In this document: one piece after another, positions 13,098-38,264 of the stretch
How positions within the stretch are numbered: position 1 is the stretch's first letter
How the letters are laid out: each line of letters starts with the position of its first letter
Assembly (NCBI GenBank): GCA_963771355.1
Contig: CAVYTA010000007.1
Location: 192,001-256,000 of the forward strand
Reading direction: 5' to 3'
DNA from: an uncultured Candidatus Rokubacteria bacterium
GTDB taxonomy: Bacteria; Methylomirabilota; Methylomirabilia; Rokubacteriales; CSP1-6
Length of the DNA stretch: 64,000 bases
The notes under the pieces: generated by a model
Told to the model about the DNA's origin: nothing
Database searches by the model: none
The model's input: only the letters and a program-made list of their open reading frames with translations
Program-made: the position numbers and the translations under genes

Positions 13098-13115
13098 ATA
13101 GGACTTTCGTCCTAG
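13098..13115. promoter_or_regulatory. Palindromic motif copy 1, ATAGGAC TTTC GTCCTAG
   Basis: Intergenic, upstream of the RND operon. Confidence 0.7.
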
Positions 13116-13255
13116 AAGATCCTTGGTCTATCGTCCTACCGAATCGGGATCGGCGATTTGCGCGTCTCGGCCGGGCTGATTTCCTTCGCGGGAATGGGCC
13201 GCTAGGGACCCAGGCTCCAACAGATCAGGGTGGCGCAGGGCACGGGGTCGGAATA

Positions 13256-13273
13256 GTGGGACCTTGGTCCTAT
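13256..13273. promoter_or_regulatory. Palindromic motif copy 2, GTGGGAC CTTG GTCCTAT
   Basis: Intergenic, upstream of AI-2E transporter/GH63/GH13 operon. Confidence 0.75.
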
Positions 13274-13284
13274 ACCAAGCCTGC

Positions 13285-13317
13285 GGGGCCTTGTGTTGGG
13301 TAGGGGCCTTGTGTTGG
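13285..13317 (+). repeat. 15-bp direct repeat GGGGCCTTGTGTTGG x2
   Basis: Exact copies at 13285-13299 and 13303-13317. Confidence 0.85.
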
Positions 13318-13345
13318 TATACGTGGCGCCGATGGCCGGACGTTC

Positions 13346-14443
13346 ATGGCCGTGAAGTCGGAGACCGCCGCGTCCTTGTCGTGGGACGTCACCCGAATTC
13401 TGCTCGCGGTGGTAACGCTTGGTGGGCTGATCGCCGCGACGTTCTGGGTGCTCCGGCCGTTTCTACCCGCGCTGATCTGGGCCACCATGATCGTCGTGGC
13501 CACGTGGCCCATGATGAGAGCGGTGCAGAGGCGTCTGGGGGGCCGACGCGTCCTCGCGGTGATCGTGATGACGGCGGGGATGGTCGTGATCGTGGTGGCC
13601 CCGATCGCGGTTGGCATCGTGGTCGTCGTCCAGCATGCTGGCGACGTGGTGGAGTGGTCGAAGTCGCTGTCGGCGAGCGTCGCGGCGGGACCACCGGCCG
13701 GGTTGAGCGATCTGCCGCTGGTGGGCAAGAGGCTCGCGAGCGAGTGGGAGAAGATCGCCTCGGCGCGGCCAGAGGACCTGGCCGCTCAGGTCAGGCCCTA
13801 CCTCGCCGATGTCGGCCGCTGGATTGTCGGCCGGGCGGGAAGCCTCGGCGTCCTCCTGATCCAGCTCGTCCTGACCGTGGGGGTCTCCGCGATGCTCTAT
13901 GCCCGGGGGGAAACGGTGGCGGCGGGCGTGCGGGCGTTCGCACGCCGGCTGGCCGGCGACTCGGGCGACGAGGTCGTCGTGCTCTCCGCTCAGGCGATCC
14001 GCGCCGTCGCCCTGGGCATCGTCGTCACCGCGGTGGTTCAGTCGGCGATCGGTGGCATCGGTCTCGCCATCACCGGGGCCCCCTATGCGGTGCTGCTGAC
14101 CGCGGTGATGTTCCTGCTCGCGGTGGCGCAAATTGGCGCGGGGCCGGTCCTGTTCGGCGCCGTGATCTGGCTCTACTGGAAGGACGAGACGCTCTGGGCC
14201 ATCGTGATGCTCGGGTGGGCGGTCATCACGGTCAGCCTCGACAATGTCCTGCGCCCGATACTCATCAAGAGAGGCGCCGACCTGCCGCTCGTCCTGATCT
14301 TCGCCGGGGTGCTCGGGGGCCTGCTCGCGTTCGGCATCATTGGCCTGTTCGTCGGACCGGTCGTACTCGCGGTGACCTACACGCTTCTGGTGGCGTGGGT
14401 CGCCCAGGGCAACCGGGCGACCCCGCGCGACGAGAGTCCCTGA
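13346..14443 (+). CDS. ydiK: AI-2E family transporter (YdiK-like)
   Basis: PFLPALIWA, DNVLRPILIKRGADLP, GIIGLFVGPVVLAV. Confidence 0.9.
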   Translation: MAVKSETAASLSWDVTRILLAVVTLGGLIAATFWVLRPFLPALIWATMIVVATWPMMRAVQRRLGGRRVLAVIVMTAGMVVIVVAPIAVGIVVVVQHAGDVVEWSKSLSASVAAGPPAGLSDLPLVGKRLASEWEKIASARPEDLAAQVRPYLADVGRWIVGRAGSLGVLLIQLVLTVGVSAMLYARGETVAAGVRAFARRLAGDSGDEVVVLSAQAIRAVALGIVVTAVVQSAIGGIGLAITGAPYAVLLTAVMFLLAVAQIGAGPVLFGAVIWLYWKDETLWAIVMLGWAVITVSLDNVLRPILIKRGADLPLVLIFAGVLGGLLAFGIIGLFVGPVVLAVTYTLLVAWVAQGNRATPRDESP

Positions 14444-14460
14444 GTCAAGGAGGGCTGCAG

Positions 14461-17196
<2,736 letters not shown>

Positions 17197-17197
17197 C

Positions 17198-18655
17198 ATG
17201 CTCTATCAGATCAATACTCGCGTCTGGCTGACAGAGTTGTCCCGGGCGCTGGGCCGGCCGGCCACCCTGGATGATGTGCCGGAGGCCGAGCTGGACCGTG
17301 TCGCCGGGATGGGGTTCGACTGGGTGTGGCTGCTGAGCCTGTGGCGCACCGGGCCGGCCGGGCAGCGGGTGTCGCGTGCTCGTCCCGAGTGGCGGAGGGA
17401 GTTCGAGGAGACGCTGCCGGACCTGCGCGACGAGGACATCGCCGGATCCGGCTTCGCGATCACCGGCTACACCGTGCATCCGGACCTCGGCGGCGACGCG
17501 GCCCTGGCGCGCCTGCGCGAGCGCCTCCGGGCGCGCGGCCTCCGGCTGATGCTCGACTTCGTCCCGAACCACACCGGCCTGGATCACCCCTGGGTGGAGG
17601 ACCACCCCGAGTACTACATCGCGGGGACCGACGTCGATCTGGCGCGGGCGCCCCAGAACTACACGTGGGTGAAGCGGCGACGGGGCGACCTCCTGCTCGC
17701 CCATGGCCGGGACCCGTACTTCGACGGCTGGCCGGACACGCTGCAGCTCGACTACGGCAATCCGGCCACCCAGGAGGCGATGATCGGCGAGCTGCTCAAG
17801 ATCGCCGGCCAATGTGACGGGGTGCGCTGTGACATGGCGATGCTCGTCCTGCCGGACGTCTTCGACCGGACCTGGGGGCAGCGCGCCCCGCTGTTCTGGC
17901 CGGAGGCCACGCGGCGGGTTCGGGAGCGGGTGCCGGGGTTCCGCTTCATGGCCGAGGTCTACTGGGACCTCGAGTGGGCGATGCTCGAGCAGGGGTTCGA
18001 CTACGCCTACGACAAGCGGCTGTACGACCGCCTCCGTGAGGGGCACGCGCGGCCGGTGCGCGAGCACCTGCGGGCCGGGCTCGACTTCCAGCGCCGGCTC
18101 GCCCGGTTCCTGGAGAACCACGACGAGCCCCGGGCCGCGGCGACCTTCGCGCCGGCCATGCACGAGGCCGCGGCCATCATCACGTTTCTGTCGCCGGGCC
18201 TGCGGTTCTTCCACGAGGGGCAGCTCGAGGGGCGCCGGAAGCGCATCTCGCCCCACCTGGTGCGCGCGCCCCTGGAACCGGCCGACGCTGCGCTGCACCA
18301 GTTCTACGACGGTCTCCTGGCGGTGCTCCGGCAGCCGATCGTTCGCGATGGCCAGTGGCGCCTGCTCGACTGCGCGCCGGCCTGGGAGGGCAACTGGACG
18401 TCGGACGGTTTCATCGTCTGGTCCTGGCAGGCTCGGGACGGCCTGCAACGGCTGATCGCGGTCAACTACGCCGGGAACCAGAGCCAGTGCTACGTGCGTC
18501 TCCCGTTTCCCGAGCTGAGCGGCCATACGGTGCAGCTCAAGGATCTGACGGGGCCCGCCAGCTACGATCGCGATGGCAGTGACCTGGTGTCACGGGGCCT
18601 CTATCTCAACCTGCCGCCCTGGGGGTACCACGTCTTCGAGGTGACCGCAGTGTGA
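17198..18655 (+). CDS. Alpha-amylase family glycoside hydrolase (GH13)
   Basis: LDFVPNH, DGVRCDMA, FMAEVY, FLENHDE. Confidence 0.92.
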   Translation: MLYQINTRVWLTELSRALGRPATLDDVPEAELDRVAGMGFDWVWLLSLWRTGPAGQRVSRARPEWRREFEETLPDLRDEDIAGSGFAITGYTVHPDLGGDAALARLRERLRARGLRLMLDFVPNHTGLDHPWVEDHPEYYIAGTDVDLARAPQNYTWVKRRRGDLLLAHGRDPYFDGWPDTLQLDYGNPATQEAMIGELLKIAGQCDGVRCDMAMLVLPDVFDRTWGQRAPLFWPEATRRVRERVPGFRFMAEVYWDLEWAMLEQGFDYAYDKRLYDRLREGHARPVREHLRAGLDFQRRLARFLENHDEPRAAATFAPAMHEAAAIITFLSPGLRFFHEGQLEGRRKRISPHLVRAPLEPADAALHQFYDGLLAVLRQPIVRDGQWRLLDCAPAWEGNWTSDGFIVWSWQARDGLQRLIAVNYAGNQSQCYVRLPFPELSGHTVQLKDLTGPASYDRDGSDLVSRGLYLNLPPWGYHVFEVTAV

Positions 18656-18813: not shown

Positions 18814-21546
18814 TCAATCCCCGCCCTTCTTTTCTCCGCCCACTTGCTGCCTCACGAGTCGAGCGAACTCTTGCGCGAGTTCCTTCTCCAGATCCTTGGT
18901 TTCGACACGCCCGAACAGGTCGAGAAGGCGAGCGACCGACCCCGTCCACCCCGTCTGGTGGCTGGCGCCGAGCCCTGCTCCATTGTCACCGTGGAAGTAT
19001 TCGTAGAAGAGGATCAGATCGCGCCAGTGCGGATCGTCCTGGAACTTGGCAGTCCCTCCGTATACCGGCCGCCGTCCGGTGGCGTCGCGCAGGAACGTAC
19101 TGGCCAGCCGGCGGGAGAGTTCTCGGGCCACTTCGAAGAGCGTCATGTACGGCCCCGTGCCCGTCGGACATTGAACCTTGAACTCATCGCCATAGAAGCT
19201 ATACAGGTTCAAGAGCGCGCGGATCAGCAGGGCATTGACGGGCATCCAGACGGGGCCCCGCCAGTTGGAGTTGCCTCCGAACATCCCGGTATTCGATTCG
19301 CCAGGCAGGTACTGGACCTTGTATTCCTCACCGCCGACGTGAAACACGAACGGATGCCCCAGGTGATACCGGGAGACTGAGCGAATACCGTGGGGCCCGA
19401 GAAACTCCTTCTCGTCGAGCATGTAGGCAAGCACCCGCTCCAGCTTCTGCTTGTTGAGGATCGACAAGAGACGCCGTCCTTTATAACCGACAAACCCCTC
19501 GTCGGTCGGGGCCAGATGGGACACGACCTCCGGATGGCGTTTCCGGAACAGGGCGATCATTTCCATCAGCTTCGGATAGCGTGTGCCCGCATCCCCATCG
19601 AACACCGTCGACGCACACAGCGGCAGGAGCCCCACCAGCGACCGCACTTTCAGACGCGTCGCCTGGCCGTCGGGCAGCCGCAACAGGTCGTAGAAGAACC
19701 CGTCCTGTTCATCCCACATCTCGTCCTGATGCTCGCCGATGCGGTCCATCGCATACGAGATCCAACAAAAATGTTCGACGAACTTGTAGGCGATCTCTTC
19801 GTACCACGAGTCGTATTCGGTGAGAATGAGGGCTATCTCCACCATATTTTGGCAGTAAAATGCCATCCAGGCCGTCCCGTCCGCCTGCTCCAGGGAGCCG
19901 CCCGTGGGGAGCTGGGCACTCCGGTCGAATACGCCGATGTTGTCGAGCCCTAGAAATCCCCCGGCGAACACGTTGCGCCCGGCGGGGTCCTTGCGGTTGA
20001 CCCACCAGCTGAAGTTCAGCATCAACCCCTGAAACGATCGTTCCAGGAACCGAAGGTCCGCCCGGCCGAGCGTCCGCTCCATCTTGTAGAGGAAGAGGGT
20101 GGCCCAGGCGTGCACCGGGGGATTCACATCGCTGAAGTTCCACTCGTAGGCGGGAATTTGCCCATTGGGGTGGGCATAAAGACCGCGCAGCATCAGCAGC
20201 AGCTGCTCCTTGGCGAAATCGAAGTCCACCAGCGACAGGGAGATCGTGTGGAAGGCCAGGTCCCAGGCCGCGTACCACGGGTACTCCCACTTGTCCGGCA
20301 TCGAGATCACGTCGGCGTTCAGCATGTGGAACCATTCCGTGTTCCGCACGCCGAGCCGACCGGCTCCCATCAGCGGATGACTCCGGTGCTCCTGAAGCCA
20401 TCGATCCAGGTCGAAGTAGTAGTACTGTTTGCTCCACAGCATGCCCGCCAGCGCCTGGCGGTGCACCCGGCGTTCATCTTCGTTCAGCGAGACCGGAGAG
20501 ATCCGGTCGTAGAACTCGTCGGCGTCGGCGATCCGGCTCTTGAACACCTTGTCGAAACCGCCAAAGGCCCTATCCGTCTTGGTTGCGGCCAGACGGAGGC
20601 GGACGGTCGCGCTTCCGCCTCCGGGCACGTCGAGGACATAGTGGGCCGCCGCCTTGGTCCCGACCTTGGCGGGGTTGACCGCCTCGGCGCGGCCCGAGAC
20701 GACGTATTCGTGGAAGGAGTCCTTGACGTAGGGGGTCGCATTGGGCTGGCCCCAGAGACGGGAGGCGTTGCTCTCATTCTCGGTGAAGAGCAGCTCCGGC
20801 GCCCCATCGCACAGCAGCCAGTACTCGCCGAGCTCCTGGTGGATGGCCTGGATCGCTCCGGGCGCTACCGCGTGTAGAGACGGTCTCGGCTGACCCTCGT
20901 CCCAGGACCAGGTGTTGCGAAACCACAGGGTCGGCAGGACGCGAAGCCGGGCCGCCTCGGGCCCGCGATTGTGCACGGTGATGCGGACGAGGATGTCTTC
21001 CGGGCTCTCCTTCGCGTACTCCACGAACACGTCGAAGTATCGGTCGTCGCCGAACACACCGGTATCGAGCAGCTCGTACTCGAACTCCTCTCGCGATCGC
21101 CGCCGGTTCGTCTCGATCAGATCCCGGTAGGGATACTCCCGCTGCGGGTACTTGTAGAGATACTTCATGTACGAGTGGGTGGGCGTGCTGTCGAGGTAGA
21201 AGTAGTACTCCTTGACGTCCTCGCCATGGTTCGCCTCACTGTTGGTGAGTCCGAACAGGCGCTCTTTCAGGATGGGGTCCCGCTCGTTCCACAGCGCCAG
21301 CGCGAAACACAGCCGTTGCTTGTCATCGCAGAGCCCGCCGAGCCCGTCCTCGCCCCACCGGTAGGCTCGGGAGCGGGCCTGATCATGGGGGAAATAGTCC
21401 CAAGCGTTGCCGTCGTTGCTGTAGTCCTCGCGGACCGTTCCCCACTGACGCTCGCTAAGGTAGGGTCCCCATTTCTTCCAGGGGATTTGCGCCTCGCGCG
21501 CCTCGTTCAAGCGCTTTTGCTCGGTGACATCCACCAAAGTGGCCAT
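18814..21546 (-). CDS. GH63/MGH1-like glucosidase, copy 2
   Basis: Same motifs as copy 1; GGAGG RBS. Confidence 0.93.
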
Positions 21547-21743: not shown

Positions 21744-21761
21744 ATAGGACCTTGGTCCCAA
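21744..21761. promoter_or_regulatory. Palindromic motif copy 3, ATAGGAC CTTG GTCCCAA
   Basis: Upstream of GH63 copy 2. Confidence 0.75.
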
Positions 21762-21763: not shown

Positions 21764-22198
21764 TCAACTGCCCTTGACCCATGTCTGGGTCTTGTAGAAG
21801 ACGCCGAGGTAGCCGCGCACCTTGAGCTTGCCGTCCTCGTTCCAGACCTCCGCCTTGTAGATCTTGCCGTCCTCCGGGTCCAGGATGGTGCCGCCCTTGA
21901 AGCGATCCCCGTCCGGCTTGAGGTCTCTGATGATGACGAGGCCGATGATCGGCTTGTCCTTGTCGTCGCCCTTGCAGGCGGTGCAGGTCTTGGGCTTGCC
22001 CGCCTTGTCATTGGGCTCGGTCAGGCCCGTGATCGTGCCGGTGAGCTTGCCGCCCTGCTCGGTGATCTGCACCTCGGATACCGGCTTGCCGGTCTTCTCG
22101 TCGATCGTCTGCCACTTGCCGACCGGTGCCTCGGCCGCCGCGGCAAGGCCGACACCGGCCACCAGGCCCAGAACCATCAATCCCCAAGTCCGCCTCAT
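21764..22198 (-). CDS. DUF2147 family secreted protein
   Basis: Signal peptide; GKWQTIDEKTG, CTAC, GGTILDPEDGKIY, KVRGYLG...TQTW; ATG 22198 after GGAGGA. Confidence 0.88.
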   Translation of the reverse strand: MRRTWGLMVLGLVAGVGLAAAAEAPVGKWQTIDEKTGKPVSEVQITEQGGKLTGTITGLTEPNDKAGKPKTCTACKGDDKDKPIIGLVIIRDLKPDGDRFKGGTILDPEDGKIYKAEVWNEDGKLKVRGYLGVFYKTQTWVKGS

Positions 22199-22221
22199 GG
22201 ACAGTCCTCCTCTCAGGTCAG

Positions 22222-22482
22222 TCAGTTCTGGAAAATCTTGGTCGACTCCACGGTGACGGCCTTGCCCCACCAGTTCTGGGTCTGGGCCGCGGCCACATCG
22301 GACCGGGTCACCTTCGGATCGGCATCCTGCGCACCATTGCGGATCGAGAACCCCATGTGCTGGTCCGACGCGAAGTGGGAGGTATGGGCGCGCCACTCGC
22401 CCCATTCTTCGGCTGTCGCGCAGCCACTGGCCACCATGATGCCGCCGCCCAACAGCAGTGCCCTCATTGCTCGTCTGCTCAT
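22222..22482 (-). CDS. Small lipoprotein, unknown function
   Basis: Lipobox VASGC; GGGGAG RBS; motif site upstream. Confidence 0.7.
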   Translation of the reverse strand: MSRRAMRALLLGGGIMVASGCATAEEWGEWRAHTSHFASDQHMGFSIRNGAQDADPKVTRSDVAAAQTQNWWGKAVTVESTKIFQN

Positions 22483-22563: not shown

Positions 22564-22581
22564 ATAGGACCAAGGACCCGC
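22564..22581. promoter_or_regulatory. Palindromic motif copy 4, ATAGGAC CAAG GACCCGC
   Basis: Upstream of lipoprotein/DUF2147 unit. Confidence 0.65.
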
Positions 22582-22665: not shown

Positions 22666-23715
22666 TCACACCTCGGCGAACTGGACGACCACCTTGATGT
22701 CTTCCGGCGTCCGCTGCAAGGCGCGCGCAAAGTCGTTCGGTCGCTCGCGTCGCGTCACGAGCTGGGCTAGCCAAGCGCGGTCTGCGCGGGCCAGGGCTTC
22801 TCCGGCCTTGTACCAGTGCCGCTTGTTGGCATTGACGCTGCCGATAACGACGTTGTTCCGCAACACCGCCCCCGCCGCCACGTCTGCCGTGCCGGGCCCG
22901 GTAGTGGAGCCGCCGGTGCCAATGCCGGTGAGACACACGGTGCCGCCTGCCGCAATGGATCGAATCGAGTCGGCAATCACCTGCCCGACGCCCGTGCATT
23001 CAATGATAACGTCCGGCTCGAATCCGATGCCGGCCACGGTGCCGGTGTGGTAGCTAGCACCGAGGGAGCGGACGAGTTCCGGCTTGGTTCCAGAATCAGC
23101 CCGATCAAGGACGTGAATGTCCAGACCGCGCTGCTTCCCGAGAAGGGCAGCGAGAAGACCGATCGGCCCCGCCCCCGTTATCAGCACAGTCCGGGGCTCC
23201 CAGAAGGCGCGCCGGCCGACCACGACGATCTGTTCCCAGGCCTTGGTGACTACAGTTGTGGGCTCCAGCAGGACACCGAGGAGCCCGAGCGAACTGTCCA
23301 CCTTCATCGCGTAGTCGGGTTCGATCCGCCAGCGCTCGGACATGAACCCGTCGATCTGCTTGATGCCACGCTCGGTGTACTGGCCGTTGCGGCACATGTC
23401 CCACTCGCCCACCGCACAGTTCGGGCAAGGGACGGGGTCTGGACGGCGGACGATCCCCACCACCAGGTCGTCCTTCTTGAGCCCGCCGGTAGGCCCCGGG
23501 TCCACCACGCGGCCCAGGGATTCGTGGCCCAACACCAAACGCGCCTTGCCGCGAGGAGCCCAGCCGTACTTGCCTTCCACGATCTCGACGTCGGTCCCGC
23601 AAACCCCGACGGCGATGGCTTCCACGAGTACCGAGCCGTCGCGCGCCTCAGGCTCTGCCACGTCCTCCAAGCGTGCGGTCCCGGGCTTCTTCGGCTCTAC
23701 CGTGATTGCCTTCAT
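22666..23715 (-). CDS. Zn-dependent glucose 1-dehydrogenase (MDR family)
   Basis: GVCGTD, LGHES, CPNC...C, TERGIKQIDG, GAGPIG, GSVNAN. Confidence 0.88.
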   Translation of the reverse strand: MKAITVEPKKPGTARLEDVAEPEARDGSVLVEAIAVGVCGTDVEIVEGKYGWAPRGKARLVLGHESLGRVVDPGPTGGLKKDDLVVGIVRRPDPVPCPNCAVGEWDMCRNGQYTERGIKQIDGFMSERWRIEPDYAMKVDSSLGLLGVLLEPTTVVTKAWEQIVVVGRRAFWEPRTVLITGAGPIGLLAALLGKQRGLDIHVLDRADSGTKPELVRSLGASYHTGTVAGIGFEPDVIIECTGVGQVIADSIRSIAAGGTVCLTGIGTGGSTTGPGTADVAAGAVLRNNVVIGSVNANKRHWYKAGEALARADRAWLAQLVTRRERPNDFARALQRTPEDIKVVVQFAEV

Positions 23716-23728: not shown

Positions 23729-24349
23729 TCAGTGCCGCGGCGGCCGCAGATCGAGCTTTTGGGTCATCCGGACAAGGTCCGCCACCGACTTCGTTTGCAT
23801 CTTCTTCATGACCCGGCCGCGATGAACCTTGATGGTCTTTTCGGCGCTTTGAAGGTCGTCGGCGATCCGCTTGTTCGGCTTGCCGGCTACGACGAGCATG
23901 AGCACCTCGCGCTCGCGTGGTGTCAGCGTTTCGAGGCGGTGCTCGAGCTCCACACGCTCCGCTCGGTCGGCTCTCTCCTTCTGGCCACGCTCGAGCGCCC
24001 GTTGCACACAATCCAGGAGCTGCTGATCGTTGAAGGGTTTCTCGAGGAAATCTACCGCGCCTGCCTTCATTGCGCGGACGCTGATCGGTACGCTCCCGTA
24101 GCCCGTGAGGAAAACTATGGGGATGTCTGGTCGGGCCTGGCTCAGGGCCGATTGGAGGTCGAGACCACTCGGGCCGGGCAGGCGGACGTCCAGCACGAGG
24201 CATGCCGGCCGGTCCGGCGGGGCGTAGTCGATGAATGAGGTGGCCGACGGGAAGGTCCTAGCCTCAAGGCCGACAGACCGGAAGAGCCGGGAGAGAGCTC
24301 GGCAGACGGATTCATCGTCGTCCACCACGTAGACTACAGCTTCGTCCAT
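23729..24349 (-). CDS. FixJ/NodW-type response regulator (REC + LuxR HTH), copy 1
   Basis: VVDDD, LDVRLP, FLEKP, LTPREREV...KTIKVHRGRVMKKM. Confidence 0.95.
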   Translation of the reverse strand: MDEAVVYVVDDDESVCRALSRLFRSVGLEARTFPSATSFIDYAPPDRPACLVLDVRLPGPSGLDLQSALSQARPDIPIVFLTGYGSVPISVRAMKAGAVDFLEKPFNDQQLLDCVQRALERGQKERADRAERVELEHRLETLTPREREVLMLVVAGKPNKRIADDLQSAEKTIKVHRGRVMKKMQTKSVADLVRMTQKLDLRPPRH

Positions 24350-24425: not shown

Positions 24426-24443
24426 ATCGGACCTTGGTCCTAT
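24426..24443. promoter_or_regulatory. Palindromic motif copy 5, ATCGGAC CTTG GTCCTAT
   Basis: Upstream of FixJ-type regulator copy 1 (possible autoregulation). Confidence 0.8.
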
Positions 24444-25916: not shown

Positions 25917-25947
25917 CTTGGTACCTCCGACATGAGGTCCTTCACGG

Positions 25948-26808: not shown

Positions 26809-26898
26809 ACACTTCTCCCTCTTGAACCTGCCCGGGCCTGGGGTGTGACCGCGGAACGAGGTCCGTCGGCCCGTGGTCGGGCCAACTTCAGCTCCAAC

Positions 26899-26940
26899 TC
26901 AATTGGCCTTGACCCACGTCAACCCCGAAGTTCCTCGCAT
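26899..26940 (-). pseudogene. Collapsed DUF2147 paralog (13-aa mini-ORF)
   Basis: MRGTSGL-TWVKAN matches start MRRTWGL and end TWVKGS of 21764..22198; upstream RBS region also homologous. Confidence 0.7.
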
Positions 26941-26969
26941 CGACATTCCTCTCTTCAGGTTTATGTCGG

Positions 26970-27527: not shown

Positions 27528-27574
27528 CGTCCGTTCTCCCCGGACCACCTGATGGAGGGTGGGCATGTCATTGG

Positions 27575-28054
27575 TCATTTGATCAGTGGAATCTCGCGGG
27601 CAATCTCGTAATTCACGAGCGCGCGCATCTTGTTCTCGACCTGGTAGAGCCGCGCTACCTTCACGGGCGGCAGGGCCCGCCGAAATCGGGGCGCGTACGA
27701 CTTGAGGATCGCGGCGTGATCCGTTTCGAGAGCCAGGAACTCGCCGAGGAGCTTGGTGGCCGTCTCGTCGGTCATCGACGAGTACGCCTTCGCGAACGTG
27801 TCGATGAGCTTCACGACGCGGTCGTAGTAGGTGATCATGTCGCTCTGATAGGCGTTGTAGACGGGCCAGAAGGCCTTGGCCTCGCCCTCGGTGAGGTCGA
27901 GCGTCGTCGCCACCACCAGTTTCTTGTCCGCCCGCGCCTTCTCGCGGAAGATCTCCATGGTGTCCGCCGGCTTGTCCTGCGCGCCCGCGACCCCGGCCAC
28001 GAAGGAAACCAGGAAGGCTCCGACCATCAATACGCCTCGATCTCGATGTCCCAT
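27575..28054 (-). CDS. Conserved periplasmic helical protein
   Basis: Signal peptide; DKKLVV...LTEGEAKAFWPVYNAYQ...KVARLYQVENK. Confidence 0.75.
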   Translation of the reverse strand: MGHRDRGVLMVGAFLVSFVAGVAGAQDKPADTMEIFREKARADKKLVVATTLDLTEGEAKAFWPVYNAYQSDMITYYDRVVKLIDTFAKAYSSMTDETATKLLGEFLALETDHAAILKSYAPRFRRALPPVKVARLYQVENKMRALVNYEIAREIPLIK

Positions 28055-28144: not shown

Positions 28145-28162
28145 ATCAGACTTTGGTCCTAT
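28145..28162. promoter_or_regulatory. Palindromic motif copy 7, ATCAGAC TTTG GTCCTAT
   Basis: Upstream of the 28054-24878 operon. Confidence 0.75.
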
Positions 28163-28194: not shown

Positions 28195-29214
28195 CTATCG
28201 TGGGCTGGCGGCGCCGGGCAGCCCGGCGCGAATGCGCCGTGAAAAATCCGGCGCCTGATCGGCGGCCTGGGCGGCGGCATTGACGAGGGAGCGTCGTTTG
28301 AGCTCTTCGAAGGGCAGGCTCTGGTCTATCCGGCCCGCCTCGTACACGTAGGCCGGCGTGTAGCCGGACAGCAACACCTTCCAGGAGAAGGGGAGGGATT
28401 CCGGATTCACGCGCGTGTTCATGAGGATCGCGGTCGTGCAATTGGTGGTGAGCGTGTTGTAGAACTCCGGGCGCTCGCGGAGCGCGTTCAGCTTGCGCAC
28501 GTATTCGAGGAACACGCGCCGCAAATTCTCACGGGGCCCACGCAGGGGATAGACGTAGACGTCCTCCGGCGGATCCTTGCGGTAATTGGTCCTGACCCGG
28601 ATCACGTCGCGCTCGTCGGCCACGACATAGTAGAGCTCGTACTGCCGGAAGAAGCCCTTGGCCGAGGAGTAGCCCTCGCCCATCTCCTTGCGGGCCTCGA
28701 TGGAGATGGCGAGGTGGTCGTCGCCAAAGCCGAAGGAGAGGAGGAGGTGAGCGATGGCCGGCCCCATCCAGTAGACGGCCACGAGGTCCCCCGAGTCCAG
28801 TTTCTTCAGGTCGTAGGTGCGGTCGTAATAGGCCGGGGTGAAGTCGGTCTCCGTACGGTAGTCGAAGTTCCTGATGTTGTGCACGGTGACCATGTCGCCG
28901 TTGACGGTCGCGTAGGCGAGCCGGGCGACCTCGGGTTGCCAGGCTCGCTCATTGGACGGCCTGAGGCCGCCCCACCAGACGGCGATCGCCGCGAGGGCCA
29001 CCGCGAAGACGGGCAGGGCGAATCGCTGACCCCGATGAAGCACGAGTGCGACAACGGCGGCGAGGCCGGCCAGGCCGTACACCGCGGCCAGGGCGAGCCG
29101 GCCTTGGTCGCCGCCGGGTCCCACGACCGTGAGGGCCAACGCGCCCCAGCCCGTGATGCCCAGCACGGCGAGAGCGCCCAGCCAACGGACGGAGCGCGTC
29201 AGGAAGCGACGCAC
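28195..29214 (-). CDS. DUF4105 / Lnb N-terminal-like membrane protein
   Basis: HNIRNFDYRTETDF, IAHLLLSFGF, SIEARKE, FYNTLTTNCTT. Confidence 0.88.
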   Translation of the reverse strand: MRRFLTRSVRWLGALAVLGITGWGALALTVVGPGGDQGRLALAAVYGLAGLAAVVALVLHRGQRFALPVFAVALAAIAVWWGGLRPSNERAWQPEVARLAYATVNGDMVTVHNIRNFDYRTETDFTPAYYDRTYDLKKLDSGDLVAVYWMGPAIAHLLLSFGFGDDHLAISIEARKEMGEGYSSAKGFFRQYELYYVVADERDVIRVRTNYRKDPPEDVYVYPLRGPRENLRRVFLEYVRKLNALRERPEFYNTLTTNCTTAILMNTRVNPESLPFSWKVLLSGYTPAYVYEAGRIDQSLPFEELKRRSLVNAAAQAADQAPDFSRRIRAGLPGAASPR

Positions 29215-29270: not shown

Positions 29271-29288
29271 ATAAGCCCAAGGTCTCAT
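29271..29288. promoter_or_regulatory. Palindromic motif copy 8, ATAAGCC CAAG GTCTCAT
   Basis: Upstream of DUF4105; degenerate. Confidence 0.55.
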
Positions 29289-29429: not shown

Positions 29430-29608
29430 TACGAGGCACCGAGGAGCTCAGCCAGGAGCTGAAAGCCAACTATCGCGCTCCCGGCTTCAACGGCAGCTTC
29501 GAGTTCTGGGTCACCGGGACCTTGTCGCCCAAGGGGAAAAAGGATCTCCAGGCCCGAGGCTTTTCGGTCGTCGAGCAGGCCGGCACCCGCATCGACATCG
29601 TCAACTGA
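29430..29608 (+). pseudogene. C-terminal gene fragment (FEFWVTGTLSPKGKKDLQARGFSVVE)
   Basis: Coding-like 3' part whose stop overlaps the next ATG (TGATG); 5' part lacks coding character. Confidence 0.45.
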
Positions 29609-30630
29609 TGAAAAAGCTCTTCGTAGCGATACTCGCGGCCGCCGTGCTGCCGGCCTTTGCCCCCGCGGCTCGGGCCCAGAACCTGGACGAGGTCTTTCGC
29701 AAGGTCAGCCCGTCCGTCGTCGTCGTGCGGAGCAAGGGGCGAGACGTCAACGCCGGGGGTGTCACCAACTTCAAACAGACGGGCTCCGGGGTCCTGATCT
29801 CCAGCGACGGCAGGGTGATGACGGCCGCCCACGTCGTCAACGGCATGGACGAGATCACCGTCGAGGGCATCGCCGGTGAGGTCGTACGCGCGACGCTGCT
29901 CTCGGCCAATACGGCCGCCGATGTTTCGCTCCTGCAGCTCGAGCGCGTGACAGGGGCCATGCGGGTGGCGCGGATGGGCAACTCCGACGCGGTGCGGGTC
30001 GGCGAACAGGTCCTGGTCGTCGGCGCCCCCTACGGACTCTCTTATTCGATGAGCGTGGGCTGGGTCAGCGCACGCTGGCCGCCCAACACAATTTTCCCCG
30101 ACATGCCGCTGGCGGAGTTCCTTCAGACCACGGCCACGATCAACACGGGTAACTCCGGTGGCCCCATCTTCAACATGGGGGGCGAGGTCATCGGTATCGT
30201 CAGCCAGAATATCTCAAAGTCCGGCGGCAGCGAGGGCCTGGGCTTTGTCGTGACGATCAACAGTGCGCGAAATCTCTTGGTCCCCCGGAAGATCTTCTGG
30301 GGTGCCCTCCAGGGCCTCCTCCTCACCGGCCGCCTGGCGAGTGTCTTCAACGTCCCTGCGCCCGCCGGGTTCCTCGTCAAGACGGTCGCCCAAGGTTCGA
30401 TGGCGTGGAACATGGGCCTTCAGGGGGCCGACGGAATCGTCACCATCGCAGGGAAGGAGATCCCCGTGGGCGGCGACATCATCCTCTCGGTCGACGGCAT
30501 CCCCGTTGTGTCTGAGGACAACATCGAGCAGATCCGCAACAGGTTGGCCGGCGTGGCGCCGGGCACCCCGTTCAAGATGAACGTGCTCCGCGCCGGCAAG
30601 ATCCTTGAACTTACGGGCACAAGCCAGTAG
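29608..30630 (+). CDS. HtrA/DegP-like trypsin-PDZ serine protease (intact)
   Basis: Signal peptide; TAAHVV, AADVS, GNSGGP; PDZ GDIILSVDG. Confidence 0.92.
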   Translation: MKKLFVAILAAAVLPAFAPAARAQNLDEVFRKVSPSVVVVRSKGRDVNAGGVTNFKQTGSGVLISSDGRVMTAAHVVNGMDEITVEGIAGEVVRATLLSANTAADVSLLQLERVTGAMRVARMGNSDAVRVGEQVLVVGAPYGLSYSMSVGWVSARWPPNTIFPDMPLAEFLQTTATINTGNSGGPIFNMGGEVIGIVSQNISKSGGSEGLGFVVTINSARNLLVPRKIFWGALQGLLLTGRLASVFNVPAPAGFLVKTVAQGSMAWNMGLQGADGIVTIAGKEIPVGGDIILSVDGIPVVSEDNIEQIRNRLAGVAPGTPFKMNVLRAGKILELTGTSQ

Positions 30631-30696: not shown

Positions 30697-31062
30697 TCAT
30701 CGGCCGCCGAGTGCCTTCTCGATCGCTTCGATCAGCAAGGGCCCCTCGAAGGGCTTTGCGAAGTAAGCGACCGCGCCGCCCTTCCGGGCCCGCTCCCGCG
30801 TAGGGACATCGTCGTGGGCCGTGATGAAGATGATCGGAAGCGGGATCTGGTCCTGTGCGAGGCGCTCCTGCAGATCGAAGCCGCTCATCCCGTTCATGTG
30901 GACGTCCAGCAACAAGCAGTCGATGCTCTCGGAATGCTCCCGCGCGAGGAACGCCTCGGCTGAGCAGAAAGTCTGCACGGTGAAGCCGGCGCCTCCCAGC
31001 AGCCGCGTGAGAGCTCGAAGAACGTCAGCGTCGTCGTCGACGACAGCAATCACGGCATTCAC
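30697..31062 (-). CDS. Single-domain response regulator (receiver only)
   Basis: VVDDD, LLDVHM, FITAH, FAKP. Confidence 0.92.
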   Translation of the reverse strand: MNAVIAVVDDDADVLRALTRLLGGAGFTVQTFCSAEAFLAREHSESIDCLLLDVHMNGMSGFDLQERLAQDQIPLPIIFITAHDDVPTRERARKGGAVAYFAKPFEGPLLIEAIEKALGGR

Positions 31063-31155: not shown

Positions 31156-31173
31156 ATGGGGCCTTGGTCGTAT
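31156..31173. promoter_or_regulatory. Palindromic motif copy 9, ATGGGGC CTTG GTCGTAT
   Basis: Between FixJ copy 2 and the receiver-only gene. Confidence 0.6.
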
Positions 31174-31237: not shown

Positions 31238-31846
31238 CTAGTTCAGACCGAGCTTCTCGGTCATCCGGACCAGGTCCGCCACCGAGTCCGCCTGCATCTT
31301 CCGCATGACCCGGCCGCGGTGAATCTTGATTGTCTTCTCCGCGTTTCCGAGGGTGTCGGCGATCTGCTTGTTCAGCCTTCCCGCCACGACCAGCTTGAGT
31401 ACCTCCCGCTCGCGTGGCGTCAGCGTCTCGAGTCGGCGCTGGAACTCCAGGCGCTCCGCTCGGTTGGCTCGCTGCTCTCGGTTGCGGGCGAGCGCGCGCT
31501 GAACACAATCCAGGAGCTGCTGGTCGTTGAAGGGTTTCTCGAGGAAATCCACCGCGCCTCCCTTCATTGCGCGGACGCTGGTCGGTACGCTCCCGTAGCC
31601 GGTGAGGAAAACTATCGGGATGTCTCGCTGGGCCTGGCCCAGCGCCGATTGGAGATCGAGGCCGCTCAGGCCGGGCAGCCGAACATCCAGCACGAGGCAT
31701 GCGGGCCGGTCCAGGGGAGTGTCGTCGATGAATGCAGTGGCCGACGGGAACGTCCTCGCCTCCAGGCCGACGGAGCGGAAGAGCCGGGCGAGAGCTCGGC
31801 AGACCAATTCGTCGTCATCGACCACGTATACGACGGCTTCCTCCAA
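31238..31846 (-). CDS. FixJ/NodW-type response regulator, copy 2
   Basis: Close paralog of 23729..24349; TTG start at 31846 aligns with copy 1 start. Confidence 0.93.
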   Translation of the reverse strand: MEEAVVYVVDDDELVCRALARLFRSVGLEARTFPSATAFIDDTPLDRPACLVLDVRLPGLSGLDLQSALGQAQRDIPIVFLTGYGSVPTSVRAMKGGAVDFLEKPFNDQQLLDCVQRALARNREQRANRAERLEFQRRLETLTPREREVLKLVVAGRLNKQIADTLGNAEKTIKIHRGRVMRKMQADSVADLVRMTEKLGLN

Positions 31847-32136: not shown

Positions 32137-34752
32137 ATGCGAGCGATGAGCATTTTCACGCGATCCCTTCGCCGCGAGGCCCTGGACTTCCAGGGGGTCG
32201 ACCGGCGGCTCGTGCTCCGAACCGCGCTCATCGCGCTCCTGGTCTCGGCGGCGTACTATCTCGGTACGGAGATTGGCCTGCGCACCCGGTTTCCTGCAAC
32301 CGGTCCTTCGATCCTCTGGCCACCGAACGCGATCCTGCTCTCGGTCTTGCTGCTGACGCCGGTCCAGAGATGGGGCATCTACCTGCTTGCGGCCTTTCCC
32401 GCCCATTTTCTGACCGAGCATCAGGCTGGCTTCCCGTTATCCCTGAACCTGGGGCTCTTCATCACCAACTGCGGGCAGGCTCTGCTCGGGGCGGTGGCCG
32501 TGCGCCGGGTCATCGGCCCTCGCATCGACTTCGACAGCCTTCGCCATGTCACAGCCTTCATCGCGGGTGCCGCCTTCCTTGCTCCGTTCGTGAGCTCATT
32601 CGTCGACGTCTGGCTGTGGGTCGCGACGGGGTGGCCGGAAGGCATTCGCTACTGGCCGGCTTGGTGGGTGCGCTTTGCGAGCAACGTGCTCACGATTCTG
32701 GTGGTGACGCCGGCAGTGGTGCTCGGTATCAGCCAGGCCCGCACGTGGTTGCGGAGACCTCCTCCGTGGCGCCAGTCCGTGGAGGCGGCCATCCTGGTCG
32801 TCGGGCTCGCGGCCGCCGGGGTGATGATAGGCCTCTCCGAACCCCGCCACCTTCAGGCCTTGATGTACACGCCCCTGCCGCTGCTGCTATGGGCCGCGGT
32901 GCGCTTCGGGTCTGCAGGGGTCAGCGCGTCGCTCTTGGCGACGACGCTTTGCATGACCCTCGCCGCTACCCGTGACGTGGAGTGGTTTGCCGGGTCGCCG
33001 GAGGCCGCGCAGACCTTCTCGGTCCAGTTCTTCATGGTGATGATGGTCACCGCCATGTCGCTGATGTTCCTGGCCGCCGTCATTCGGGAGCGGGAGCGGG
33101 CGGAAACGGCGCTGAAGGAGCGGCTCGCCTTCGAGCGGCTGCTGTCCGAGGTATCGGCCGGGTTCGCCGGCCAACCAGGCGGGGACATCGCCGAAGCGAT
33201 TCAGGGCGCTCTGGATCGCATCGTTGAGTGCCTCGATGTCGACCAGGCGACGCTGGCACAAGCGTCAGATCATGGCCGCACCTTTGAGCTCAAGTACGCT
33301 TCCCATGACCAGCGGATCGACCCGCTGCCGGGACAGATCCGTACGAGTGAGTTTCCGTGGGGACGAGACAAGATTCGCCTCGGCGAGGTGGTTTGCTTCT
33401 CAAGTCTGGGGGAGCTTCCCGGCGAGGCGAGGACTGATCGAGAGAACTATGGCCGGTACGGTATCAAGTCCGGTGTGGCTATTCCCTTGATGGCTGGACC
33501 GGCAAGCCTTGGCATCCTGGGGCTGGCTACCGTACGGTACGAGCGGTCATGGTCCGGCGAGATGGTGGATCAACTCCGATTGCTGGGGGAGATCTTTACC
33601 GCCGCGATGATGCGCCAGCGAGCGGATACCGATGCTCGCGAAGGGGAAGCCCTGAACCGGGCGGTGCTGGCGTCACTGTCCGGCGCCGTCGCGGTCGTAG
33701 ACCGCGCGGGGGTCACTATCCGGGTGAACGAGACCTGGACCTGGTTGAACCGCTCCTTCGGGCACGCGCTTGTTCCCGACCTCGTGGTGGGCGTGAGCTA
33801 TCTCGAGGCCTGCCAGCGGGCAGCGGAGCGGGGCGTCCAGGAAGCCCAGCCCGCGCTGGTGGGGATCCGGGCGGTCCTGGAGCGGACTCGCGCCGGGTTC
33901 TCGCTGGAATACTCGGGGCCCGGGTTGGACCAGGCGGGCTGGTGGGAGATGCTGGTGGTACCGTTGGATCGCCCGGAGGGCGGTGCGGTCATCACTCATC
34001 GCGACGTCAGCGATCGCAAGCGCGGTGAGCACGAGGCCCAGCAGCAACGGCAGAGTCTCGCGCACTCGGGGCGGCTGCTCGCCGTCGGCGAGCTCGCCGG
34101 GTCGCTCGCGCACGAACTCAATCAGCCCCTGACGGTGATGGTGACCAATGCCCAGGCCGCTCAGCGCCTGATTCGTCAACCGTCGGCGGATCTCGGCGAG
34201 CTAAGAGAGATCCTATCGGACATCGTGCAGGCTGGCCAACGTGGGGCCAACGTGATCAGAGGCGTGCGGGGGCTGCTCAGGCGGGCCGATTCCGACCAAG
34301 TGCCGGTTGACTTGAACACGCTCATCCGCGAAGTCACTGGCCTGCTCCAGAGCGACGCCATCCTCAAGGGCATCTCGGTGCGCCTCGAGATGAGCCCTGA
34401 TCTCCCGCCCGTCCTCGGGGAGCGAGTACAGCTGCAGCAGGTGATCTTGAACCTCTTCATGAATGCTTACGAGGCCATGAGCGGCGCGCCCGACGGACCG
34501 CGCGAGCTGGTGGTCCGGACGAAGCACGGGCCCGGCAACGTCGAGTTCCTGATCTCGGACACGGGTCCTGGTCTGAGCGACGAGACCGTGGAGCGGATGT
34601 TCGAGCCTTTCTTCACGACCAAGCGCGAAGGCCTGGGTCTGGGGCTGTCGATCAGCCGGACAATTGTCAGAGCTCACGGCGGAGAGATCAGAGCGGGTCG
34701 ACACGCAGAACGCGGAAGCACGATATCGGTCACATTGCCGCCACTCCTTTGA
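32137..34752 (+). CDS. Sensor histidine kinase (MASE1-GAF-PAS-HisKA-HATPase)
   Basis: MASE1 SILWPPNAILL; H-box AHELNQPL; N, G1 (DTGPG), F (FEPFFTTK) and G2 (GLGLGL) boxes. Confidence 0.93.
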   Translation: MRAMSIFTRSLRREALDFQGVDRRLVLRTALIALLVSAAYYLGTEIGLRTRFPATGPSILWPPNAILLSVLLLTPVQRWGIYLLAAFPAHFLTEHQAGFPLSLNLGLFITNCGQALLGAVAVRRVIGPRIDFDSLRHVTAFIAGAAFLAPFVSSFVDVWLWVATGWPEGIRYWPAWWVRFASNVLTILVVTPAVVLGISQARTWLRRPPPWRQSVEAAILVVGLAAAGVMIGLSEPRHLQALMYTPLPLLLWAAVRFGSAGVSASLLATTLCMTLAATRDVEWFAGSPEAAQTFSVQFFMVMMVTAMSLMFLAAVIRERERAETALKERLAFERLLSEVSAGFAGQPGGDIAEAIQGALDRIVECLDVDQATLAQASDHGRTFELKYASHDQRIDPLPGQIRTSEFPWGRDKIRLGEVVCFSSLGELPGEARTDRENYGRYGIKSGVAIPLMAGPASLGILGLATVRYERSWSGEMVDQLRLLGEIFTAAMMRQRADTDAREGEALNRAVLASLSGAVAVVDRAGVTIRVNETWTWLNRSFGHALVPDLVVGVSYLEACQRAAERGVQEAQPALVGIRAVLERTRAGFSLEYSGPGLDQAGWWEMLVVPLDRPEGGAVITHRDVSDRKRGEHEAQQQRQSLAHSGRLLAVGELAGSLAHELNQPLTVMVTNAQAAQRLIRQPSADLGELREILSDIVQAGQRGANVIRGVRGLLRRADSDQVPVDLNTLIREVTGLLQSDAILKGISVRLEMSPDLPPVLGERVQLQQVILNLFMNAYEAMSGAPDGPRELVVRTKHGPGNVEFLISDTGPGLSDETVERMFEPFFTTKREGLGLGLSISRTIVRAHGGEIRAGRHAERGSTISVTLPPLL

Positions 34753-36008: not shown

Positions 36009-36761
36009 TCACGTGGTTGCCGGGGAACGTTGACCGGTGACGGGAGAATCCGCCGCCACCTCGGGGCCCACGATCAACGGGTACGCGATCCCGCCGAGGA
36101 TCCCGCCGATGATGGGCGCCACCCAGAACAGCCAGAGCTGGCCCATCGCCCATCCGCCGACAAAGAGCGCAGGCCCGGTGCTCCGCGCCGGATTCACTGA
36201 CGTGTTGGTCACAGGGATGCTGATCAGGTGGATGAGCGTTAGGGCCAGGCCAATCGCGATGGGAGCAAAGTGCTGCGGTGCACGTCCGTGCGTTGCGCCG
36301 AGGATGATGAGCAGAAAGAAGAAGGTCATCACCAGTTCGCACACAAACGCGGCCACGAACGAGTAGCCGCCTGGCGAGTGCGCACCGTAACCGTTCGAGG
36401 CGAAGCCGCCGGTGAGGCTGAACCCCGGCTTTCCACTCGCGATCACATACAGCACGCCCGCGCCGGCCGCGCCGCCCAACACCTGCGCGATGATGTAGTG
36501 GAAGAGCTCGCTGCCCGGGAACCGCCCTCCCGCCCAGAGACCGAGCGACACGGCCGGGTTCAGATGACACCCCGAGATGTGCCCGATCGCGTACGCCATC
36601 GTCAGCACGGTGAGTCCGAACGCAAACGATACACCCAGCAACCCGATGCCCACGCTCGGGAAGGCAGCGGCGAGGACCGCGCTCCCGCAGCCGCCGAGCA
36701 CCAGCCAGGCCGTACCCAAAAACTCAGCAGCAAACCTCTGGGGAAGAGGAACTTGAGCCAT
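36009..36761 (-). CDS. aqpZ: Aquaporin Z
   Basis: [12 protein letters not shown] and [12 protein letters not shown] 36761. Confidence 0.96.
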
Positions 36762-36868
36762 AAGAACCTCCCTCGCCGCGGGCGGCGCGTCACGGTTTGA
36801 AATCTTCGGTTCCTTCACCTGAATACCACTCGTGGTCACATATCGTCGACCATTCTTCGTTCGCGAGG

Positions 36869-36890
36869 CGATAGGACATTGGTCCTATCG
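36869..36890. promoter_or_regulatory. Palindromic motif, perfect copy CGATAGGAC ATTG GTCCTATCG
   Basis: 9-bp perfect inverted repeat upstream of aqpZ. Confidence 0.85.
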
Positions 36891-37014
36891 GGAGGGCACG
36901 GGCCGCCGAACGGACTCCACGGTCGGCAAGCACCTCGAGAAGACGGCCGCCGATGGCACAAAAACGGCACATGATGCTAAGATCGAGACCTCGCCACACG
37001 TAACCGCTGGAAAA

Positions 37015-37089
37015 GCCGGGGTAGCTCAGTGGCAGAGCAACTGATTCGTAATCAGTAGGTCGCGGGTTCAACTCCCGCCCCCGGCTCCA
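37015..37089 (+). tRNA. tRNA-Thr(CGT)
   Basis: GCCGGGG/CCCCGGC acceptor stem, ACTGA-TTCGTAA-TCAGT anticodon arm, GGTTCAACTCC T-arm, encoded CCA; TGcTAAGAT extended -10 at 36975-36983. Confidence 0.97.
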
Positions 37090-37267
37090 TTAACCCACCG
37101 ATTACGATGGCGTCTTCCGAGGCAACTCCTTCGGGGCGACCTGCGTCTCTGCTTCTTGTGCCCGTCTTGTGCCCAAGCTGGCGCTCGGAGCGATCTTCAG
37201 CACATCATCGAGGCGCGACACCGCGGTGCGGAGATGTTCCGGGGCCGGCAACTATACGGGAATTCGG

Positions 37268-38071
37268 TCAGCGCCGGTCCGTGATTCTCCGCGAAGGTTG
37301 GCCGATATGGATGTGGGCGCCCGTGGACGAGCCGGGCACCGCCTGGCGGACGCCGATGAACGGGATGTTCTGCCCCTGCAGATACCGCATGAGGGCCTGG
37401 CCCTCGGCGCTGTCTGGATGCACCGCCACGTCCACCGCCTGGCGGTGGTCGAAGCCGATGCGATCGTGCACCGAGCTCTGCCCGAGCGCGCTGATGGGCA
37501 AGGGGCGGCCGAAGCGGCCGCCGAAGAAGCGCTCCACGCGCGGGACATCGGAAAGGGAGAAGGGGAGGGTCCCGTTGAAGCGGATGAAGGCGGCGCTCGC
37601 CGTGTAGCCGCCCGCGGGCAACGGCGCCAGCTTGGCCATCTCGATGTGCGCCACGGCCTCGCCGATGATCCCTTCTCGTATCTTTTTGGCCTCGCGGATC
37701 AAGCGCTCCGTCTCCTTGATCTTGCGCTGCGTCTCGGCGAGGAGCTCCTCGGCGATCTCCACCTCGCGGCGGGAGATGATCTGCCGCTGGTAGAGATCGC
37801 GCCGTACCTCGACCATCTCGGCCACGCTCTGGGCGTCCTTCTGGTGGATGGCGAGCGTGCGCTCGAGGCTCGCCACGTACTCGCGCGTGGTGCGCACGAT
37901 ATCGGCGGCGATCCGATCGAACTGCTCGGCCTGGCGGTCGCGCGGGCGCGTGGTGCTCGGAGGGCGGGCGCCCGCGCCCGGCGCCGGCGCGCGGCTCTGT
38001 CCGTGGACGGGGGCGGTCTCGATGAGGAGAAAGGCGATCAGGCCGAGGACGAGGCGGACGGAGGGGGTCAC
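37268..38071 (-). CDS. Secreted coiled-coil protein with C-terminal DD-peptidase/M15-like domain
   Basis: Signal peptide; coiled coil; DHRQAVDV...GAHIHIG (H-x6-D-like and HxH Zn-ligand pattern). Confidence 0.6.
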   Translation of the reverse strand: MTPSVRLVLGLIAFLLIETAPVHGQSRAPAPGAGARPPSTTRPRDRQAEQFDRIAADIVRTTREYVASLERTLAIHQKDAQSVAEMVEVRRDLYQRQIISRREVEIAEELLAETQRKIKETERLIREAKKIREGIIGEAVAHIEMAKLAPLPAGGYTASAAFIRFNGTLPFSLSDVPRVERFFGGRFGRPLPISALGQSSVHDRIGFDHRQAVDVAVHPDSAEGQALMRYLQGQNIPFIGVRQAVPGSSTGAHIHIGQPSRRITDRR

Positions 38072-38212
38072 TCTTGAATTGTAGCGCGCGGGATCACGCG
38101 CAGGCCCGCCGCCCCTTCGGCACCGCCACTGGTAAGCATGGCGGGCTCGTGTACGCACCTTTAGAAGGTGCTCAAGTAAGCCGTCCGCCCTCCGGCTCGG
38201 GGCCCGCCCGAG

Positions 38213-38230
38213 ATGCGACCAAGGTCCTAT
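38213..38230. promoter_or_regulatory. Palindromic motif copy, ATGCGAC CAAG GTCCTAT
   Basis: 35 bp upstream of the alpha/beta hydrolase; weaker second copy at 38236-38253. Confidence 0.75.
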
Positions 38231-38264
38231 GTCCAAGATGACCAAGGTGCGCTAGGACTCACAC

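Follow-up and report, generated by a model that had tools for sequence, protein, structure and literature searches.

What is the 18-bp palindrome that recurs between the genes of a 64,000-nucleotide stretch from an uncultured Candidatus Rokubacteria bacterium (assembly GCA_963771355.1, contig CAVYTA010000007.1, positions 192,001 to 256,000; this whole stretch is hereafter called the window), and which protein reads it? A first-pass annotation of the window had drawn the palindrome as ATAGGAC-(CTTG)-GTCCTAT and taken it for the operator of FixJ/NodW-type response regulators encoded among its copies. The comparisons of sequences described here show the palindrome to be a genuine box, linked to promoters throughout the genome, and make it likely that it is the binding site of StyR/FixJ-like regulators having lysine at the second position of the recognition helix of their helix-turn-helix (HTH) domain (Lys-type regulators), which as phosphorylated dimers would activate about 40 envelope, transport and stress promoters. 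The regulon appears sound and apparently unpublished, and its mechanism, two-component activation from about -44, would be ordinary and of a known kind. A full-text literature search on the motif, the regulon and the gene families, which did not extend to supplements, regulon databases, subscription journals or motifs given as figures alone, returned no paper describing the box in the parts of the texts available.

Distribution and consensus of the palindrome

The box is present, always in intergenic DNA, at all 11 positions listed by the first-pass annotation (13098 to 38213). A matrix built from 29 sites outside the window recovers these copies as well, ten of them with 20-29 bits and the copy at 22564 with 12.7 bits, and adds a weak twelfth site at 13122 (14.8 bits); simulated windows (third-order Markov, n=40) hold on average 0.25 matches of at least 14 bits. 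The copy at 36871 is indeed perfect, its fully complementary 7-bp arms flanking ATTG, while the other listed copies pair 3-6 of the 7 arm positions. The distance to the start codon, put at 35-200 bp, roughly held at 31-197 bp with the initial starts, two of which are better placed elsewhere (a lipoprotein ATG at 22482 and an aqpZ ATG at about 36761, from reading the translation). No copy had been seen after 38.3 kb, and the matrix scan likewise gives no match of at least 9 bits in the window past 38213.

The notion of a local regulon stood in one part only. The cluster in the window is real, and since three strong boxes lie in the 20 kb preceding the window, in the same gene cluster, it spans about -20 kb to +40 kb; the box itself, however, is genome-wide. 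A matrix trained on the window finds 29 further sites of at least 16 bits in the rest of the genome (5.5 Mb), of which 28 are intergenic, and a refined matrix finds 42 sites in the genome at the same threshold. The genome is 87% coding by our own codon-model gene calls, in which some gene starts are rough. Comparison with coding DNA, proposed earlier as a check on the motif, gives 40 sites per Mb of intergenic DNA vs 0.21 per Mb of coding DNA. Column-permuted matrices (n=60) produce a mean of 0.5 and a maximum of 5 matches of at least 20 bits, against 29 real ones. At 16 bits this control is weaker (mean 6.6, maximum 77, vs 40 real), and because some permutations give many matches at low threshold, the argument rests on the strong sites.

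Over 154 sites from this genome and its relatives the consensus is A/G-T-n-G-G-A-C-C/T-AA-G-G-T-C-C-n-A-T. This corrects the palindrome as first drawn in that position 3 is variable and the centre is an AA/TT step (135 of the 154 sites). T2, G5 and C7 are near-invariant, with G5 in 305 and C7 in 307 of 308 half-sites; these figures, like that for the centre, refer to sites chosen by the matrix. The two arms vary independently, the observed complementarity at positions 1-8 being that expected. Among the 42 sites of this genome 21 lie in divergent, 20 in codirectional and one in convergent gaps, and none of the 108 classified sites of relatives lies in a convergent gap. Independent arms and avoidance of convergent gaps fit a protein-binding site and not an RNA hairpin. 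Secondary matches of at least 6 bits are few, 14 around 144 sites, five of them at offset 22. At two promoters (L141:5516-5540 and L036:4439-4470) overlapping boxes are formed from 7-bp repeats (CCTAGGT/C).

Regulators, kinases and the helix that accompanies the box

The window encodes the following candidate signalling proteins:

23729..24349, minus strand: response regulator copy 1, receiver plus LuxR/GerE HTH; D54, T82 and K104 present; helix AEKTIKVHRGR
31238..31846, minus strand: response regulator copy 2, 82% identical to copy 1; presumed TTG start; helix AEKTIKIHRGR
30697..31062, minus strand: single-domain receiver protein
32137..34752, plus strand: MASE1-GAF-PAS histidine kinase, divergent from regulator copy 2; no box upstream

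Both regulators match Pfam Response_reg and GerE with D10, D11, D54 and K104 invariant, and the best matches to the regulator among the named records listed (62-65%) are from Rokuibacteriota and Methylomirabilota. FixJ is their best NCBIfam model, at 214.8 and 213.5 bits, below the cut-off of 255; the kinase reaches 171.9 bits with the FixL model, through the kinase core only and far below the cut-off of 850. Upstream of the kinase and of regulator copy 2 there is no box of at least 6 bits, unlike upstream of the MASE1 kinases of relatives, where boxes are found. A census of HTH proteins in the genome gives five LuxR-type proteins above the Pfam cut-off plus one sigma-like match, and the helix E-K-T-[IV]-K occurs in three of these. 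The third Lys-type paralogue, on contig C5, is 52% identical and has boxes both upstream and downstream; a second related GAF kinase, on contig C6, is similar over the kinase core (47%) and has boxes upstream. The three paralogues probably share the box. With three paralogues and two kinases as candidates the window's MASE1 kinase is not singled out, and control by it and by the local FixJ copies, as the first-pass annotation had it, is possible, but the C5 paralogue and the C6 kinase have boxes next to them as well.

The regulator and the box occur together. In 150 genomes of the phylum, with 20 candidates scored per genome, at least two strict sites are present in 39 of the 57 genomes with a StyR/FixJ-like regulator vs two of the 93 without; for at least one strict site the figures are 49/57 vs 12/93, and a reversed control pattern occurs 0-2 times per genome. 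The association extends to other phyla, as seen in the best 80 of at least 599 confirmed loci in named genomes. A box of at least 16 bits stands in 28 of the 30 loci with a Lys-type regulator vs none of the 42 in which the same helix position is Ile, Val, Met or Thr, and it is likewise missing from the six Arg-type and two Gly-type loci. Two of the 28 positive loci belong to this genome's own lineage, and the two Lys-type loci without a box have the helix K-T-V-E and cluster with FixJ-like sequences in the tree. Lys-type hosts include deltaproteobacteria, Acidobacteriota, Verrucomicrobiota, Gemmatimonadota, Bacillota and Burkholderiales. In 21 of the 30 Lys-type loci no more than 250 bp separate the box from the regulator stop. 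The 31156 box of the window has this position right behind the regulator gene, which is conserved across phyla.

De novo motif sampling near the stops of Lys-type regulators returns ATnGGACC-GGTCCnAT. In the Ile/Val group, the StyR/TodT/NodW-like one, it returns ancATAC-ctag-GTATgnt (best score reached in one of eight restarts) in the same place and often with the same 22-23 bp promoter spacing described below. This second motif is found in none of the 30 Lys loci, has no match of at least 18 bits and two of at least 15 bits in the present genome, and matches with 20 bits in a held-out Bradyrhizobium plasmid locus, where it stands behind an Ile-type regulator. Three Arg- or Gly-type loci contain similar palindromes altered at base 5, which is anecdotal. 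Co-occurrence, the site behind the regulator, the covariation with the helix and the promoter geometry thus all argue for the operator of FixJ/NodW/StyR-type regulators suggested at the outset.

Several observations weigh against this attribution or limit it. Eight of the 57 regulator-bearing genomes are without a strict site and 12 of the 93 regulator-less ones have at least one, and related genomes are not independent. The main exception is genome G012, which has four strict sites and no regulator found; its MASE1 kinase orthologue is cut at a contig end. The Ile/Val motif scores in 32 of the 42 loci, the same ones from which it was derived, and a second held-out locus (Cupriavidus, Val-type) has no match to it beside the regulator. 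The 42 Ile/Val/Met/Thr regulators form one clade (tree support 1.0), so that their contrast with the Lys type amounts to a single evolutionary event, and the residue has changed independently to Arg or Gly in only a few cases, some of these loci being short. Some called targets are housekeeping-like (an RNase PH operon, ATP sulfurylase). Finally, kinases beside Lys-type regulators (23 scanned) have MASE1, ABC-binding or ETR1_N sensor domains or just GAF or PAS, and since these vary no single signal follows.

A broader proposal can be made tentatively. The box may belong to a switch for envelope, pH and osmotic stress that is general among uncultured phyla of soil and sediment (Rokubacteria, Acidobacteria, Verrucomicrobia, deltaproteobacteria, Gemmatimonadota). 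Several paralogous regulators, fed by kinases with swapped sensors, would there converge on one operator, and one helix residue would set base 5 of the half-site (Lys reading G, Ile/Val reading T/A, Gly perhaps C). If this is true, operators become predictable for hundreds of unstudied StyR/NodW-like regulators, including a box of the ATCATAC-N4-GTATGAT type in culturable Bradyrhizobium and Rhizobium. The link from helix to base is the most useful addition made here; it also predicts a box for a sister group found in culturable rhizobia. Palindromes of the type ATCATAC/CAAAC-N4-GTATGAT are seen directly behind the genes of Ile/Val-helix regulators of Bradyrhizobium, Mesorhizobium, Rhizobium, Stenotrophomonas and others, as follows:

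L052, L057-L061, L065, L071-L083 and L204:7661-7678: Ile/Val-type palindrome; -10-like hexamer often at 22-23 bp

Promoter geometry and comparison with known systems

A -10-like hexamer, [TCG]AnnnT, starts 22-23 bp past the box at 31 of 42 own sites, 43 of 58 sites of relatives and 31 of 44 sites from other phyla, in total 105 of 144 vs 9.5% of random intergenic positions, and the single peak is at this distance. The strict form TAnnnT is found there at 15/42, 19/58 and 20/44 sites, respectively, vs a background of 1.2%. With this spacing the box is centred near -44 and covers the -35 region, which is activator geometry and suggests that the promoters are activated. A standard sigma-70 scan of 21.4-32.3 kb gave one promoter, the same as shuffled sequences, a result that fits an absent consensus -35 and is uninformative alone. 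The copies in the window, with their hexamers, are:

13098..13115: box ATAGGACTTTCGTCCTAG, facing the minus-strand RND operon; GAGCTT 22 bp downstream; 24.4 bits
13122..13139: weak second box, 24 bp from the 13098 copy, missed by the first-pass annotation; 14.8 bits
13256..13273: box 72 bp upstream of the AI-2E gene; no clear -10 at 22-23 bp
21744..21761: box upstream of MGH1/GH63 copy 2; TGTAGT at 22 bp
22564..22581: weakest listed box, upstream of a small lipoprotein-like gene (ATG 22482) and DUF2147; TAGTCT at 23 bp
24426..24443: box upstream of regulator copy 1, predicted to be autoregulated through it; CAGTAT at 23 bp
24530..24547: box with GAGAAT at 23 bp; ATG 24583 six bases after the hexamer
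28145..28162: box upstream of the operon of a 150-aa protein, SYLF and a solute-binding protein; CATACT at 22 bp
29271..29288: box between divergent genes; -10-like hexamers at 22 bp on both strands (TAAACT, TACCCT)
31156..31173: box between regulator copy 2 and the single-domain receiver; TAAAAC at 22 bp
36871..36888: box with perfect arms, upstream of aqpZ; GACGAT at 23 bp
38213..38230: box 34 bp upstream of the alpha/beta hydrolase ATG 38265

Between the 13256 box and the AI-2E gene there is a short tandem duplication (GGGGCCTTGTGTTGG twice, 13280-13320), which may have displaced the -10 of this promoter. The promoter and box of MGH1 copy 2 (21650-21770) are copied near-identically in a gene-poor stretch of contig C6 (C6:11320-11440), with TATAGT where the 21744 site has TGTAGT; the two sites are consequently not independent. 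Start codons 24583 and 38265 sit six bases past a -10-like hexamer, which suggests leaderless transcripts, and genome-wide 11 of 159 cases have an ATG 6-7 bases further on, which amounts to a weak peak.

The protein family suggests how such promoters would work. A GAF-containing kinase would phosphorylate D54 of the regulator, the phosphorylated regulator would dimerise with each HTH reading one ATnGGAC half across the AA/TT centre, and the dimer would recruit sigma-70 polymerase from its place at about -44, where it covers the -35 region. Feedback would come from the boxes that precede regulator and receiver genes and, elsewhere, kinase genes, and the receiver behind a box would likely damp or relay the signal.

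Four known systems may be compared. EL222, a LOV-HTH protein of Erythrobacter litoralis, has the helix SEKTVKMHRG (AEKTIKVHRG here), and its consensus RGNCYWWRGNCY (PMC10521638) fits the own sites as a 12-bp core, 21 of them exactly, 18 with one mismatch and three with two (n=42), which lends the attribution independent support from experiment. It activates where its site overlaps the -35 region (PMC5001607), as the spacing suggests here. However, EL222 is a one-component light sensor with LOV fused to the HTH, whereas the regulators of the window have an N-terminal receiver domain; the box also has extra conserved flanks (T2/A17), and the C120 operator scores -1.9 bits on the matrix. StyR of the StyS/StyR system of Pseudomonas fluorescens ST (compare also TodS/TodT) is the best PDB match to the regulator (1yio, E 1e-54), and its phosphorylated dimer activates from about -40 (PMC2442086), the box here being near -44. 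It differs in its helix, AEVTVKVHRH, which is of the Val type and of the group without this box (E-K-T here), and in controlling one catabolic operon vs about 40 promoters.

The box of DevR/DosR (Mycobacterium tuberculosis) is likewise an 18-bp palindrome with essential G5 and C7 and A/T at position 9, and the proximal Dev box ends 33-34 bp from the start point (PMC3177182). Dev boxes, however, always stand 2-4 in tandem, secondary sites being rare here; positions 1-3 are AT-n and not those of a box with G3; and the proteins are only distantly similar (HTH E 1e-4). The DevR/DosR system senses hypoxia, NO and CO through a haem-GAF kinase; GAF domains are present in the window kinase. FixL/FixJ of rhizobia has the same regulator architecture, FixJ being the best NCBIfam model, and an imperfect palindrome of 18 bp has likewise been predicted as the FixJ box (PMC4999443). 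Both proteins here nevertheless fall under the FixJ and FixL cut-offs, the FixJ helix is SPRTVEVHR, and the published fixK site TAAGTAATTTCCCTTA scores -9.0 bits on the present matrix.

Predicted targets, the signal and alternative explanations

The genes behind the boxes of the window agree with the targets named in the first-pass annotation. All are predicted targets:

7112..12960, minus strand: RND efflux operon (MFP, AcrB-type, outer-membrane factor)
13346..18655, plus strand: AI-2E transporter, MGH1/GH63 hydrolase, GH13 protein
18814..21546, minus strand: MGH1/GH63 hydrolase copy 2
21764..22482, minus strand: small lipoprotein-like gene and DUF2147
22666..23715, minus strand: glucose dehydrogenase-family gene directly behind regulator copy 1
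24583..24849, plus strand: small lipoprotein-like gene, no Pfam match
24878..28027, minus strand: 150-aa protein, SYLF/Ysc84, family-3 solute-binding protein, protease fragment
28195..29214, minus strand: Lnb_N (DUF4105-type) protein
29608..30630, plus strand: trypsin-PDZ protease behind a short gene fragment
36009..36839, minus strand: aquaporin Z
38265..40175, plus strand: alpha/beta hydrolase

Elsewhere in the genome boxes stand before genes for DUF3300-DUF2950, DUF308, a DUF481 barrel, an OprD porin, MlaC, patatin, amidase, CopD, BON, a transglycosylase-associated protein, a fatty-acid desaturase, ATP sulfurylase and pyruvate phosphate dikinase-like proteins, and before a transaldolase/6-phosphogluconate operon. 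A fumarate reductase-aspartase-Dcu operon (L129:4067-10001, contig C4) has a strong box with TATCGT at 22 bp. In relatives the same gene families are found behind boxes though the gene order is shuffled, and NhaA, PqiAB, MscS, sulfatases, an aspartate decarboxylase-antiporter cluster and cytochrome c oxidase are added. Taken together, these families suggest maintenance of the envelope along with a balancing of pH, ions and water. The osmotic, desiccation or envelope response proposed earlier is plausible from the gene content, to which the relatives add pH and ion-homeostasis genes, the sensor domains differing from locus to locus; judged by gene content, envelope, pH or osmotic stress has about an even chance of being the signal. 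Dozens of envelope genes of unknown function (DUF3300, DUF2950, DUF2147, SYLF, Lnb_N, small lipoproteins) would then be grouped under one switch in a lineage that is abundant, uncultured and found in soil.

Two alternatives concern what the palindrome is and what binds it. An inverted repeat in intergenic DNA could be an RNA hairpin, a terminator or a repeated extragenic element, but the independence of the arms, the avoidance of convergent gaps, the unrelated flanks and a terminator scan of 21.4-32.3 kb that flags no box have already largely refuted this reading, which we regard as extremely improbable. It is improbable, too, that a different transcription factor travelling with the gene cluster binds the box and has the response regulators merely as its targets. 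The regulator genes do stand behind boxes themselves, and G012 combines four strict sites with no regulator found; yet the kinase contig of that genome is cut, the box tracks the helix residue of the regulator across phyla, another palindrome taking its place when this residue changes, and EL222, which shares the helix, binds the core found here.

The other two alternatives accept binding by Lys-type regulators and differ as to the driver or the signal. A variant that is unlikely, though to be taken seriously, has the C5 paralogue and the C6 kinase drive the regulon, the window copies being recent, partly redundant duplicates. The C5 copy has the Lys-type helix and boxes on both sides, boxes also precede the C6 kinase, and in two genomes of the genus (G002, G003) it is a C5-like copy that matches best. 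The window copies, 82% identical to each other, lie among gene fragments. Both window copies, however, retain the phospho-acceptor and the helix residues, copy 1 has its own box, and close orthologues of the window copies (70-77%) are present in G014, G047 and G102, with 25 and 17 strict sites in G047 and G102, respectively. As for the signal, a low-oxygen or dormancy response like that of DevR/DosR or FixLJ, in place of envelope or pH stress, seems rather doubtful. The resemblance to the Dev box with its essential G5 and C7 (PMC3177182), the fumarate reductase-aspartase-Dcu operon here and a cytochrome c oxidase operon in G149 speak for it, but with the FixL model the kinase attains 172 where the cut-off is 850, no box of at least 7 bits precedes the cytochrome bd genes that lie upstream of the window, and the targets are mostly lipoproteins, transporters and hydrolases. 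An acid-stress lead was also dropped, the part of PMC5936775 available making no mention of FixJ, LuxR or a motif.

Some minor observations may be added. A scan of viral sequences gave 19 scattered single matches, and soil RNA libraries (at least 24 runs, with contigs from four) contain short pieces that are up to identical, from which neither transcription starts nor strand nor expression level can be read; neither set was used as evidence. In G047 (L192:4161-5318) a kinase, a regulator not of the StyR type, a box and a receiver gene follow each other in the usual module order. Broken or partial genes of the window lie at 1925-3695, 24878-25570, 29288-29608, 34889-35077 and 35213-35740. They include a glucose-6-phosphate-isomerase-like gene in two frames (labelled from its translation), a trypsin-PDZ copy with a shortened N-terminal part, a HAD protein of 175 aa whose homologues have about 330 aa, and pieces of an Lnb_N-like gene and of a 400-aa protein. 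The GC content of the cluster core (10000-30000, 18000-38000) is 65% vs about 70% genome-wide, a hint of acquired or rearranged DNA.

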